Part shown: positions 8,272 to 44,631 of the stretch, in pieces | Layout: the number at the start of each line of letters is the position of its first letter | Position numbering within the stretch: position 1 is the stretch's first letter | DNA from: Escherichia coli | GTDB taxonomy: Bacteria > Pseudomonadota > Gammaproteobacteria > Enterobacterales > Enterobacteriaceae | DNA length: 64,000 nucleotides | Direction: 5' to 3' (one strand) | Assembly (NCBI RefSeq): GCF_051903065.1 | Contig: NZ_CP178438.1 | Notes under the pieces: generated by a model | Database searches by the model: none | The model's input: the letters and a program-made list of their open reading frames with translations, nothing else | Told to the model about the DNA's origin: nothing | Made by a program: the position numbers and the translations under genes

Positions 8272-8560
8272 AACTACCTCGTGTCAGGGGATCCATTTTC
8301 AGCCTTGGCACAAGGGAAGAGCGGAAGACGGGTGGGCGCAGAGCGATACTTCGCTACTATTTTCACCCAGAAGTGCTCCACCACTTGCGAAACGCCCGAC
8401 TGCGAACGCTTCTGGTGACAACCCAGGGGATTCAGCCCCTGTAGCCGATGATGAACGTGGCCAGCCGTTCAATCACCTCGGCGATGCACCCCCTCAGGTG
8501 TTATCACAGGACTGGCTCCTCCAACACCGTTACTTGGGCAACGCGCCTCTTCTGGCCTGC
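8272..8560 (-). promoter_or_regulatory. lysC leader containing lysine riboswitch (LYS element)
   Basis: About 290 nt GC-rich untranslated leader directly upstream of the lysC start; matches the known position of the lysine riboswitch; boundaries approximate. Confidence 0.65.
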
Positions 8561-10445: not shown

Positions 10446-10570
<125 letters not shown>

Positions 10571-10615
10571 TCGTATTCGGCAATTAATGCATAGCACGAT
10601 TAATTAAATAACCTT

Positions 10616-10650
10616 AAAAACAATGCCGACTATAAGTCGGCATTGTTTTA
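10616..10650 (+). terminator. Rho-independent terminator downstream of pgi
   Basis: Hairpin caatgccgac...gtcggcattg followed by TTTTA. Confidence 0.6.
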
Positions 10651-10957
10651 TCAGATAAATCTCCTTGTCTGTGATTTAACGGAAATCATACCGTGAGGTT
10701 AATCCTAAAATAGATTTTTAATCGTGATTTATTTCGGAAAATACTCAGATTAATTACTTTTGCTTTTATTTTAACACTATGATTTTTAATGTTATTTATA
10801 TATAAGTTGTAGCTTATATTTGATATTCATTCCAATTATCCTAAAACCCCATCTCTAATTCCCCGCGCCGTAATTCGCATGCTTTAGTTGTGTATACTCG
10901 ATCCCGCCCGAAATGTTTTTGGGTAAATCTCCATTCATTCAATGAAGGGAAATTGTT

Positions 10958-20139: not shown

Positions 20140-20280
20140 CATTCCAGGACGGATAAGGCTTTCACGCCTTATCCGACAACAACTGCCTGATGCGACGCTG
20201 ACGCGTCTTATCAGACCTACATACGTTTCGGTTTTGTAGGCCGGACAAGGCGTTCACGCCGCATCCGGCATTTCACAGCA
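20140..20280. repeat. REP/BIME repeats in malE-malF intergenic region
   Basis: ggataaggc...gccttatccg and gccggacaaggcgttcacgccgcatccggca palindromic units. Confidence 0.7.
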
Positions 20281-21835
<1,555 letters not shown>

Positions 21836-22951
21836 ATGGCGAGCGTACAGCTGCAAAATGTAACGAAAGCCTGGGGCGAGGTCGTGGTATCGAAAGATAT
21901 CAATCTCGATATCCATGAAGGTGAATTCGTGGTGTTTGTCGGACCGTCTGGCTGCGGTAAATCGACTTTACTGCGCATGATTGCCGGGCTTGAGACGATC
22001 ACCAGCGGCGACCTGTTCATCGGTGAGAAACGGATGAATGACACTCCGCCAGCAGAACGTGGCGTTGGTATGGTGTTTCAGTCCTACGCGCTCTATCCCC
22101 ACCTGTCAGTAGCAGAAAACATGTCATTTGGCCTGAAACTGGCAGGCGCAAAAAAAGAGGTGATTAACCAACGCGTCAACCAGGTGGCGGAAGTGCTACA
22201 ACTGGCGCATTTGCTGGATCGCAAACCGAAAGCGCTCTCCGGTGGTCAGCGTCAGCGTGTGGCGATTGGCCGTACGCTGGTGGCCGAGCCAAGCGTATTT
22301 TTGCTCGATGAACCGCTCTCCAACCTCGATGCTGCACTGCGTGTGCAAATGCGTATCGAAATCTCCCGTCTGCATAAACGCCTGGGCCGCACAATGATTT
22401 ACGTCACCCACGATCAGGTCGAAGCGATGACGCTGGCCGACAAAATCGTGGTGCTGGACGCCGGTCGCGTGGCGCAGGTTGGGAAACCGCTGGAGCTGTA
22501 CCACTATCCGGCAGACCGTTTTGTCGCCGGATTTATCGGTTCGCCAAAGATGAACTTCCTGCCGGTAAAAGTGACCGCCACCGCAATCGATCAAGTGCAG
22601 GTGGAGCTGCCGATGCCAAATCGTCAGCAAGTCTGGCTGCCAGTTGAAAGCCGTGATGTCCAGGTTGGAGCCAATATGTCGCTGGGTATTCGCCCGGAAC
22701 ATCTACTGCCGAGTGATATCGCTGACGTCATCCTTGAGGGTGAAGTTCAGGTCGTCGAGCAACTCGGCAACGAAACCCAAATCCATATCCAGATCCCTTC
22801 CATTCGTCAAAACCTGGTGTACCGCCAGAACGACGTGGTGTTGGTAGAAGAAGGTGCCACATTCGCTATCGGCCTGCCGCCAGAGCGTTGCCATCTGTTC
22901 CGTGAGGATGGCACTGCATGTCGTCGACTGCATAAGGAGCCGGGCGTTTAA
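21836..22951 (+). CDS. malK: Maltose ABC transporter ATP-binding protein
   Basis: ORF 21746..22951; start at [18 protein letters not shown]; Walker [10 protein letters not shown], signature LSGGQRQR. Confidence 0.95.
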
Positions 22952-24369: not shown

Positions 24370-24500
<131 letters not shown>

Positions 24501-42323: not shown

Positions 42324-42942
42324 TCGCTAGCCATTTTGCTGCTCCTCATCATATCGACCCTGCAAGGTCGGTTGGTTTCTCCACAAAACAGAGAAGAACA
42401 CCTGCGGTGGTAGCCGCCCGGATGGATTGGGTTATGAGCCCGTCGTCCGGTGATGCTCTTCTCTGTTTTGTAAAAAGAGCGGTACCAGCCGGAAGCAAGT
42501 GTACAAACTGGTACCGCCAAAGCAGTGGCTGTTGTGGTGGGGTTGTCACTCAGGCGTATGGTCAACCTGACAATCCGGTGTCCTCAACGGGGAAAGAGTA
42601 ACCCCGCCATACTTACCGCCGCGCCATTTCGCGGATTACCACAACGCTGAGAGCACTTAGCCAGTTACGGCACCACACTTTGTCGAGGTTCCATAAATGC
42701 CCTCATCGTTGCACCCTGGTCTCTTCCCAGGCGTCAAACCGAATCGCCACGCTGGTTAGGCGTCTTATCAGCATCCTCATTGACTTGCACATTCCGGCTA
42801 CCTGGTTTGTTTGCCCGAGCAAGGAGTGGATTGTCCCCTTTAACGTCCCCAGACCGCTAACGACGCATGTGCCATACGCCGTGTTACAACCAAATTTTGT
42901 CAGGACCTTGTTTGTTGGTCTGGAAAGAAAGATAAAATGAAA

Positions 42943-42980
42943 TTGCGTAACGTGCAAGTATTTTATTGCGAGATATGCAA
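42943..42980. promoter_or_regulatory. Candidate leftward operator pair (TTGCG-N5-GCAA)
   Basis: ttgcgtaacgtgcaa (42943-42957) and ttgcgagatatgcaa (42966-42980). Confidence 0.45.
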
Positions 42981-42989
42981 TAGTGTGAG

Positions 42990-43016
42990 TAATGAAAAGC
43001 CACCTTCTGGTGGCTA
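42990..43016 (-). terminator. Hairpin terminator downstream of repressor gene
   Basis: gccaccttctggtggc hairpin; on minus strand followed by TTTTCATT. Confidence 0.5.
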
Positions 43017-43036
43017 ATTGATGTTGAGGTAGGGGG

Positions 43037-43729
43037 TTAATTGTGTCGCTTAAGGGTTTGTGACTGACTGATTAAGACCTTTCCAAAGACCATAAACCGG
43101 TGTTCGTTTTCGCTGGTAATTCCCCATTCGCGGTAAATCTGATTATCAGAAATTACCAGCAGTTTATCAGGTATCATTTGCAGTCGTTTGACGTAAATTT
43201 TATCATCAAAACCAAATACATATATACCATCCCCATCAAACTGATTGATACTGATATCAACGAAGATGAGATCTCCTGGCTCAATGGTTGGACACATACT
43301 GTCCCCACGAACGTTGATAACTTTAATGTGATTTGCTGGTCGTCCACCAAACATCGATACAGCATTATCAGTTCTGTATTCAATGGCATGAATCACATCA
43401 ATGACATCACCGCCCTGGATAAGGCCATTTCCCGCACTGGCACTGACATCCAGCATTTCAATACGGAATACATCCTTCACCTGCGCAACATCCTCACTAA
43501 TACTGTTTTTACATACAGTATTACTTTTGAGGTCTGAGGTAAAGAGATCAGCAATATCAACACCTAAGCTCCTGGCAATATTACTCAGGGCTTGTTCAGT
43601 GAATTGTTTCTGCTTACCTGTTTCGAGGCGCGAGATATTCGCCGCATCCACTCCTATTGCTTCAGCGAGATCGGCGATTTTCATGTTCTTCGCCTGGCGA
43701 AGTTGTCTGACTCGATTTCCTATGTTCAT
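43037..43729 (-). CDS. CI-like phage repressor (HTH-XRE plus S24 peptidase domain)
   Basis: 230-aa ORF MNIGNRVRQLRQAKNMKIADLAEAIGVDAANISRLETGK...; C-terminal RGDSMCPTI and KRL (Ser/Lys dyad). Confidence 0.85.
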   Translation of the reverse strand: MNIGNRVRQLRQAKNMKIADLAEAIGVDAANISRLETGKQKQFTEQALSNIARSLGVDIADLFTSDLKSNTVCKNSISEDVAQVKDVFRIEMLDVSASAGNGLIQGGDVIDVIHAIEYRTDNAVSMFGGRPANHIKVINVRGDSMCPTIEPGDLIFVDISINQFDGDGIYVFGFDDKIYVKRLQMIPDKLLVISDNQIYREWGITSENEHRFMVFGKVLISQSQTLKRHN

Positions 43730-43826
43730 GCGTTTATTACATTTCTTTATTGCGCGTTAAGCAAATCAACTTGCGCAAAATATTTGCGTGAAATAATATG
43801 CTCATCACGCAATATGTGGAGGTTAT
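43730..43826. promoter_or_regulatory. Repressor/Cro divergent promoter-operator region
   Basis: ttgcgcgttaagcaa (43750-43764), palindrome TTGCGCAA (43771-43778), and TTGCGTGA-N13-TCACGCAA (43785-43813). Confidence 0.6.
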
Positions 43827-44087
43827 ATGCAATCACCATTACGGAATGTGCGTAAGGCGCACGGATTTACTTTGCAGCATGTTGCTGCGGGCGTTCAGGT
43901 CAATCCAGCGACGCTGAGTCGTATTGAAAGACTGGAACAAATTCCATCTATCGATCTTGCAGAACGTCTGGCCAATTTTTTTAAGGGTGAAATCAGCGAA
44001 ATGCAGATTCTTTATCCGGCACGTTTTCAATCTAGCCAAAACCAGAATGGGTTTAAACCACAGGAACAGGAGGTAAGCCGTGGGTAA
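43827..44087 (+). CDS. Cro-like HTH regulator
   Basis: 86-aa ORF with GGAGG RBS; HTH FTLQHVAAGVQVNPATLSRIERLEQIPSIDLAERLANFF. Confidence 0.75.
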   Translation: MQSPLRNVRKAHGFTLQHVAAGVQVNPATLSRIERLEQIPSIDLAERLANFFKGEISEMQILYPARFQSSQNQNGFKPQEQEVSRG

Positions 44088-44631
44088 GCATCATTGGAAA
44101 GTGGAAAAACAACCTGAGTGGTACGTGAAAGCTGTCAGAAAAACTATCGCGGCATTGCCAGGGGGTTACGCTGAAGCTGCTGACTGGCTGGATGTAACAG
44201 AGAACGCTTTATTCAACCGCCTTCGTGCAGATGGCGATCAGATTTTCCCGTTGGGATGGGCAATGGTTTTACAGCGTGCTGCTGGCAATCACCACATTGC
44301 GGATGCTGTCGCACAGTCTGCTGGTGGGGTGTTTGTATCACTTCCTGAAATTGAGGAAGTAGAGAACGCCGATATCAACCAGCGCCTGCTGGAGGTCATT
44401 GAACAGATCGGCAGTTATTCCAGACAGATTCGTTCAGCAATTGAAGACGGGGTGGTGGAACCACACGAGCAGGCAGCAATTAACGACGAGCTGTACATGT
44501 CAATTTCGAAGCTGCAGGAGCATGCAGCACTGGTCTACAAAATCTTTTGCGCTCCAGAAAAGAGTGACGCCCGCGAGTGTGCAGCTCCGGGCGCCGTGGC
44601 GTTTTGTGTCTGTGGAGAAACTAACGCATGA
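44080..44631 (+). CDS. CII-position regulatory protein (possibly YdaT-like)
   Basis: 183-aa ORF, GTG start with AGGAGG RBS, overlapping cro stop; family uncertain. Confidence 0.4.

Follow-up and report, generated by a model that had tools for sequence, protein, structure and literature searches.

Which DNA sequence is likely to serve as operator in this prophage immunity region, and how are the sites arranged around its early promoters? The window (the whole stretch of Escherichia coli DNA that was analyzed, 64,000 nucleotides in length) contains a repressor gene which a first-pass annotation had described as flanked by an operator family of the formula TTGCG-N5-GCAA, in a layout like that of OL and OR of a lambdoid switch.

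The Prophage and Its Immunity Genes

The content of the window is that of an E. coli host chromosome with a lambdoid prophage. A scan with Rfam found the host features lysine riboswitch, three naRNA4/REP elements, and STnc430 (listed jointly at 8363-8559 on the minus strand, 10475-10546, 20147-20217, 24376-24446, and 10612-10761), which indicates that the first ~36 kb of the window are host chromosome and that the prophage lies at the dusA-side junction near 36.7 kb. The neighbors in the best-matching genome are the lamB...lexA-dinF-zur genes and a truncated tRNA-dihydrouridine synthase gene. The genes and signals of the immunity region are the following:

43037-43729, minus strand: cI-like repressor gene, 230 aa (Pfam HTH_3 and Peptidase_S24; PHROG transcriptional repressor/CI-like repressor)
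43827-44087, plus strand: cro-like gene, 86 aa, with a single HTH_3 domain (open reading frame, Pfam, and PHROG)
43818-43822, plus strand: Shine-Dalgarno sequence GGAGG of cro (read directly from the sequence; "ggagg" is kept in the stacked alignment)
44080-44631, plus strand: cII-like activator gene of the YmfL/CP76 family, context rather than part of the operators (Pfam Phage_CP76; PHROG CII-like activator; 87% identity to e14 YmfL)
42998-43015, minus strand: intrinsic terminator hairpin closing cI transcription, between cI and OL (terminator prediction)

The cI gene diverges from cro over a 97-bp spacer and the cII-like gene comes next, which is the gene order of a lambdoid immunity region. 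A hairpin with an A/T run equivalent to the cI terminator is found in relatives and is an annotated terminator in phage SfII. At the nucleotide level, the immunity segment shares ~97% identity with phages PhiR47_1 and mEp460 and with several Stx2 phages and 91% with Shigella phage SfII, and the three genes are annotated as cI, cro, and cII in the PhiR47_1, mEp460, Stx2 phage, and SfII records. At least 80% of a 1-kb immunity query was found in 1039 of 5426 complete E. coli genomes, and the region is also present in Stx2-converting, cdt-carrying, and Shigella serotype-converting phages.

The CI protein carries a helix-turn-helix domain at its N-terminus (Pfam HTH_3, HTH_26, and HTH_31 over residues 3-64) and a Peptidase_S24 domain at its C-terminus (E 6e-19, residues 104-218). 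In the alignment of CI with its relatives, S-A99-G100, G-D-S144-M, and V-K181-R-L are invariant; these are features of a RecA-inducible repressor of the CI/LexA type, with Ala99-Gly100 as the candidate cleavage site and Ser144/Lys181 as the candidate S24 dyad. Among solved structures, no close relative of this CI was found. The recognition helix of Cro (ATLSRIE) is similar to that of CI (ANISRLE).

The Probable Operator Motif and Its Four Sites

The repeated unit is a 15-nucleotide inverted repeat, [T/A]TGC-N7-GCAA, which can equivalently be written as TTGCG-N6-GCAA or TTGCR-N5-YGCAA. The formula in the first-pass annotation was thus off by one: TTGCG-N5-GCAA has no match in the region and a single match in the window, at 22211, and the sites are 15-mers of the form TTGC-N7-GCAA. 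The five strings quoted there are nevertheless all present, at 42943-42957, 42966-42980, 43750-43764, 43771-43778, and 43784-43791/43805-43812. Four strong sites are found in the window, two to the left of cI past its terminator and two in the cI/cro spacer; the scores are from a weight matrix trained only on relatives whose CI is at most 84% identical:

42943-42957, unstranded: distal operator of OL, TTGCGTAACGTGCAA (first quoted as ttgcgtaacgtgcaa); matrix score 19.0, second in the window
42966-42980, unstranded: proximal operator of OL, TTGCGAGATATGCAA (first quoted as ttgcgagatatgcaa), 23 bp from the distal one; matrix score 19.1, best in the window
43750-43764, unstranded: OR site adjoining cI, TTGCGCGTTAAGCAA (first quoted as ttgcgcgttaagcaa); matrix score 15.5
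43798-43812, unstranded: OR site adjoining cro, ATGCTCATCACGCAA, with A as first base; matrix score 14.0, fifth in the window

By count alone, the motif is not enriched, as TTGC-N7-GCAA has five matches over the whole window where 2.9 are expected, and five are also attained in 16 of 100 shuffles. Its placement is a different matter. Three of the five exact matches fall within ~140 nt of noncoding DNA flanking one repressor gene (binomial P ~1e-7 by our own arithmetic), and the five best matrix scores in the 64-kb window include those at 42966, 42943, 43750, and 43798. Together, the exact matches and the ranking by a matrix built on distant relatives indicate a clustering far beyond chance. 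The consensus refined with the matrix is TTGCR-N5-YGCAA with A or T at the center.

One other high-scoring match, TTGCGGAATATGCAA, lies in the host SOS gene dinF at 33433-33447; with a score of 18.8, it is third in the window and as good as the true sites. This look-alike is more than 3 kb outside the prophage and ~9.5 kb from OL, and it is probably a chance match, as ~0.3 matches of that score are expected per window.

Conservation in Related Prophages

Three sets of relatives were compared. The first consists of the cI neighborhood of five diverged phages with CI 68-96% identical to that of the window, the second of 80 IMG/VR contigs with CI at least 99% identical, and the third, drawn from bacterial assemblies at one genome per species, of 18 loci that were usable, with CI identities of 40-94% (Citrobacter, Kluyvera, Klebsiella, Trabulsiella, Pantoea, Mixta, Rosenbergiella, Cedecea, Providencia, Serratia, and Phaseolibacter). 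With Escherichia, Shigella, and Salmonella added to these genera, 23 diverged loci with CI 40-100% identical were available from about ten enterobacterial genera.

The 23 loci share the recognition helix and the offsets of the sites from cI and cro, and in the sites themselves, the outer TTGC and GCAA are fixed and the inner bases variable. The peptide pattern by which 18 of the 23 loci were retrieved (R[LV]ETGKQK) contains the recognition helix, so an invariant helix in those 18 follows from the search, and the result to be read from them is that the same helix goes with the same operator. In 19 of the 23 loci, the cI-side OR site begins at +21 relative to the cI start codon, and in the other four, it stands at an equivalent place; ATGC-N7-GCAA is found at +69 from the cI start, or at an equivalent place, in 22. 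On the left, most loci have two sites just past the cI terminator, the second 22-24 bp from the first. When the 23 right-hand regions are stacked without gaps, the information peaks exactly on TTGC, GCAA, TTGCGCAA, ATGC...GCAA, and two -10-like hexamers.

Closely related phages give the same picture on a shorter scale. In 82 loci whose CI proteins are at least 99% identical, the extra alleles per alignment column, taken as the measure of polymorphism and added up across the four sites, amount to 0.25 for the outer eight bases compared to 2.4 for the inner seven and 1.9 for the flanks. At 42943-42957, where the position of the site is kept in the relatives, only inner bases vary among such loci.

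A motif search across related prophages, proposed with the first-pass annotation as a check, bore out the sites, as both they and their half-sites are kept in the 23 diverged loci across the full range of CI identity. As in a lambdoid immunity region, inverted repeats of one family stand on both sides of cI and overlap conserved -35/-10 pairs of the proposed divergent and leftward promoters. The OL/OR layout claimed at the outset receives strong comparative support, with 15-mers that would lie on the leftward promoter beyond the cI terminator and on PRM and PR in the 97-bp spacer. Collectively, these results make it very probable that the [T/A]TGC-N7-GCAA 15-mers are the operators of a prophage immunity region of the mEp460/SfII/PhiR47 type. 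The literature on mEp460, SfII/SfV, ymfK/ymfT, Stx2k phage, and lambdoid operator half-sites, searched also for the exact operator strings, contained no description of these sites within the reach of the search, which did not extend to older subscription papers. The recognition sequence seems never to have been described before, and the kind of element is itself ordinary.

Probable Operators and Proposed Early Promoters

The sites are closely tied to a recurrent promoter-like geometry. The pattern TTGCNN-17-TAnnnT, to which an operator contributes its initial TTGCNN, is found at PRM, PR, and PL alike, and the -10 elements proposed from it are as follows:

42929-42934, minus strand: proposed PL -10, TATCTT (TAnnnT stands 17 nt past a TTGCNN -35 in ~19 of 23 loci)
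43736-43741, minus strand: proposed PRM -10, TGTAAT, 6 nt before the cI ATG (inferred from the conserved offset)
43794-43799, plus strand: proposed PR -10, TAATAT, which shares its final two bases with the beginning of the operator at 43798 (TAnnAT at a fixed 17-nt spacing)

The corresponding -35 elements would be supplied by operator half-sites. For PL, the proposed -35 is the right half of the 42943-42957 site read on the minus strand (TTGCAC, 42957-42952), and an AAGATAA block at the PL -10 is conserved in the relatives. For PRM, it is the right half of the 43750-43764 site on the minus strand (TTGCTT, 43764-43759); TGTAAT, TTAAAT, or TTTAAT is found at the PRM -10 offset in 22 of the 23 loci and is followed in 19 by 6 nt and the ATG without a Shine-Dalgarno sequence, a distance which implies that the cI mRNA is leaderless. 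For PR, the proposed -35 is TTGCGC (43771-43776), and TTGCGC, 17 nt, and TAnnAT follow one another in 22 loci, the remaining locus reading TAATGT. The overlap of the PR -10 with the first two bases of the cro-side operator accounts for why this operator always begins with ATGC and not TTGC. In terms of coverage, the last bases of the proposed PR -10 and the start point predicted for PR fall under 43798-43812, the PL -35 and spacer under 42943-42957, and the PRM -35 under 43750-43764. Transcription is predicted to start at about 43729 for the leaderless cI mRNA, about 43806 for PR, and about 42922 for PL.

Measured against the consensus, the proposed promoters are weak (7-8 of 12 positions), and a generic promoter scan made no call on them. 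The promoters which that scan listed instead, TCCACA-16-TATTAT (43820 to 43793) and CTCACA-18-TAAAAT (42989 to 42960), were rejected, as their hexamers are not kept in relatives.

The coincidence of three motifs with the proposed hexamers TTGCTT, TTGCGC, and TTGCAC raises the question of whether TTGC is there only as the sigma-70 -35 element of the three early promoters, the palindromes being incidental and no repressor recognizing them. This is very hard to reconcile with the data, and we regard it as highly improbable. First, conservation of the partner GCAA, at a distance of exactly 7 nt, equals that of TTGC in the 23-locus stack, and polymorphism spares both half-sites equally. Second, the sites at 42966-42980 and 43798-43812 are at no -35. 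Third, TTGCNN is a poor match to TTGACA. Recognition of the 15-mers as operators, some of whose half-sites would double as -35 elements, is the reading followed below.

The Middle Element and the Long Inverted Repeat

Between the two strong OR sites lies a further element, which the first-pass annotation had counted as an operator:

43771-43778, unstranded: 8-bp palindrome TTGCGCAA (ttgcgcaa); proposed PR -35 and left half-site of a degenerate middle operator, 43771-43785

The palindrome is present as claimed and is kept in 21 of the 23 loci, the other two having TTGCGCAT, and it is preceded by aAC. By count, it is unremarkable in the window, with one match against 3.1 expected. The 15-mer starting at 43771 has a matrix score of -5.1 in the window and of 8-14 in about eight of the 23 relatives. 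The preferred interpretation is that the element combines the PR -35 with the strong half of a degenerate middle operator, rather than being a complete operator, for three reasons: it holds the same place at PR as the full operators hold at PRM and PL, the 15-mer there is consensus-like in about eight relatives, and HK022 likewise has a degenerate middle OR site. Two other possibilities were rejected. A self-standing operator would have to accommodate a helix-turn-helix dimer, for which an 8-bp palindrome does not suffice, and the palindrome is not enriched in the window. The 15-mer that ends at TTGCGCAA (43764-43778) has AATC, AAGC, AATT, and the like as its left half and matches the consensus only in one locus (L091). 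On inspection of the sequence, no full site was found 23 bp from either strong OR site.

No full operator is as strictly conserved as TTGCGCAA, and the constancy of the last three bases of this palindrome is explained by neither the -35 nor the operator matrix.

The region also contains a longer repeat, of which the left arm is the following:

43784-43791, unstranded: TTGCGTGA, a half-site-like motif and left arm of an inverted repeat with 13 nt between the arms (TTGCGT only in the E. coli/SfII/Citrobacter lineage and in one Pantoea locus, L100)

The right arm, TCACGCAA at 43805-43812, is the right half of the 43798-43812 site. The repeat TTGCGTGA-N13-TCACGCAA reported in the first-pass annotation is real in the window, with perfect 8-nt arms 13 nt apart, but it is not a conserved unit, and the conserved site at this place is ATGCTCATCACGCAA. 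One could take the right-hand operator to be this long repeat (43784-43812), or else a 32-nt imperfect palindrome centered at 43781, whose arm pair (I1) is 72% complementary and also exists in the window. The comparison leaves very little room for either. The left arm is absent from most relatives; complementarity between the 8-nt arms is lost even in SfII, as well as in Citrobacter and all more distant relatives; and what is kept instead, in 22 of the 23 loci, is ATGC-N7-GCAA. In addition, half-sites 21 bp apart are beyond the reach of one helix-turn-helix dimer. A long-repeat operator is thus most unlikely, and the 15-mer at 43798-43812 is retained as the cro-side operator.

Which Protein May Bind the Sites

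The sites could in principle serve a regulator other than CI, namely, the CII-like activator or Cro alone. Lambda CII recognizes TTGC-N6-TTGC repeats. The tetranucleotide TTGC is the half-site of lambda CII (also quoted in PMC2629481), a CII-like gene lies immediately downstream of cro in the window, and the helix of Cro resembles that of CI. Several observations speak against such a regulator. The repeats in the window are inverted with N7 and not direct, and they are placed on PL, PR, and PRM; sites of the lambda CII type are instead direct TTGC repeats that flank the -35 of an establishment promoter. Moreover, the CII-like protein belongs to the CP76/YmfL family and not to the lambda CII family. 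It is 87% identical to e14 YmfL, yet e14 has sites of the GTAC type, which argues that the sites track CI/Cro and not CII. Binding by the CII-like activator, or by Cro alone, is accordingly considered improbable, and CI, probably joined by Cro, is kept as the putative binder.

Proposed Operation of the Switch

Which protein binds, in what order the sites fill, where transcription starts, and whether autoregulation is positive or negative are inferred here from sequence. In the proposed mechanism, dimers of CI would set one helix-turn-helix on each TTGC/GCAA half-site, and dimers of Cro probably do so too, since its recognition helix resembles that of CI. On the left, the two sites 23 bp apart (42943-42957 and 42966-42980) would control PL, with the TTGCAC half of the distal site acting as -35 and 42966-42980 as a helper site upstream. 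On the right, occupancy of 43798-43812 would cover the start point of PR together with the last bases of its -10 and so shut off cro and the early right operon, TTGCGC(AA) at 43771 serving as the PR -35 and as the strong half of the degenerate middle site. The site at 43750-43764 would supply the -35 (TTGCTT) of PRM, which would make the leaderless cI mRNA, and CI at high concentration, or Cro, would turn cI transcription down from this site. On SOS induction, self-cleavage of CI at Ala99-Gly100, stimulated by RecA, is predicted to free all sites.

Another operator-like sequence is found within the cro gene:

43848-43862, unstranded: degenerate operator-like 15-mer GTGCGTAAGGCGCAC, which is exactly cro codons 8-12 (score 2.1 in the window, P 0.25)

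In ~12 relatives, TTGCGnAAATCGCA[A/T] is found in frame as cro codons 8-12 (L-R-K-S-Q/H), in the same register in L003-L005, L091-L093, L095, L098, L100, L103, and L104. The score of the 15-mer in these relatives is above the synonymous-codon expectation, with P 0.001-0.01 per locus (0.1-1% of recodings), and in the lineage of the window, the site has decayed to GTGCGTAAGGCGCAC. This 15-mer could be a fourth operator, ~40 nt past the PR start and with its center 50 bp from that of the 43798 site.

A more far-reaching possibility is that the switch is wired unlike that of lambda in four respects jointly: a TTGC half-site that doubles as -35 at each of the three early promoters, two strong OR sites separated by 48 bp, the over-conserved TTGCGCAA between them, and a further operator in cro codons 8-12 of most relatives that is kept against synonymous drift. 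We put this forward tentatively and consider it somewhat doubtful as a whole. If the first of these holds, CI would be a direct competitor of sigma region 4, with repression as its only possible effect on PRM, and autoregulation would be simple and negative, without activation of PRM by CI.

The leader of PL has features of its own. It extends over 42340-42925 on the minus strand, is ~580 nt long, precedes a yfdP-like gene, and contains no convincing open reading frame. It folds better than 100 of 100 shuffles (z -3.8), with a ~25 bp hairpin near its 3' end, and has no match to Rfam at E up to 1. No N-like gene is found after PL in the window. The leader may be a structured regulatory or antitermination RNA. 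In several other loci, L001 (SfII), L003, L005, L092, L093, L096, and the K-12 prophage e14 (L008, just past the ymfK terminator), a conserved element of ~65 nt stands at the start of the PL transcript, with the form ...AACAGGCAGGACGCCCACGAAGUAGCCGCC-stem-loop-GAUGAUUCG and compensatory changes in three base pairs. It is absent from the window and has no sequence similarity to HK022 putL, and it could be a put-like or nut-like RNA common to different immunity types.

Knowledge of the operator would have several uses. First, with TTGCR-N5-YGCAA in hand, superinfection-immunity groups would become predictable from sequence. Second, it would help the design of reporters and induction assays for these toxin phages. 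Third, it would add one more pair of recognition helix and operator to the catalogue on the evolution of repressor specificity.

Comparison with Known Systems

The cryptic prophage e14 of E. coli K-12 (ymfK-ymfT-ymfL) has the same gene order and layout as the window, with palindromes between ymfK and ymfT and past the ymfK terminator, and its YmfL is the close relative of the CII-like protein mentioned above. In contrast, its YmfK is only 23% identical to the CI of the window, a BLAST comparison of YmfT with Cro gave no match, and its palindromes are GTAC-based (e.g., TTGTACCGTTAAGGTACAA) rather than of the TTGC/GCAA kind. The low identity of YmfK and the GTAC-type sites rule out e14 as the same immunity type.

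Lambda shares with the window the divergent cI and cro genes, a repressor with a helix-turn-helix and a self-cleaving S24 domain, operators on both sides of cI over PL and PR/PRM, a PRM transcript of cI that is leaderless in lambda and would be so in the window, and, next to cro, a cII-type gene. The lambda sites are 17 bp long and stand in adjacent groups of three per side at a spacing of 23-24 bp, with OR2 centered at -42 of PRM, where CI activates PRM. Compared to this arrangement, the window has two strong OR sites 48 bp apart (starts at +21 and +69) and only two OL sites, the distance between OL and OR is ~0.8 kb instead of 2.4 kb, and the operator half-site itself is the proposed -35 of all three promoters. 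The cI-nearest site is centered at approximately -28 of the proposed PRM start, from which repression is predicted and not activation as from lambda OR2. The OR of the window is not a tripartite one in the style of lambda, the middle 15-mer being centered at approximately -49 of the proposed PRM start; as the window has no more than a half-site at this middle position, with a score of -5.1, a cooperative pair like lambda OR1-OR2 is not evident.

The closest characterized analogue is coliphage HK022, whose CI is 43% identical to that of the window. According to the annotation of GenBank X16093, its operators are of 15 bp with 5-bp half-sites and a 5-bp center, as in the window. HK022 also has two OL sites around the PL -35 (24 bp apart), and its OR comprises a cro-nearest site just past the PR -10, a middle site of degenerate sequence within the PR spacer, and a third at the cI start; like the window, it has no N gene. 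In sequence, the PL leader of the window showed no similarity to HK022 putL. The differences lie in the half-site, which is TGAAC/GTTCA (TGAAC-N5-GTTCA) in HK022 compared to TTGCR/YGCAA in the window; in the third OR site, which overlaps the cI start codon in HK022, whereas in the window, it stands 21 nt upstream and would supply the PRM -35; and in the middle OR site, which in the window, unlike in HK022, retains one half-site only. Homologues with other recognition helices, such as those of HK022 and e14, have different palindromes in the same layout, and what the window reveals is not a new kind of mechanism but a seemingly undescribed specificity in a well-known kind of system.
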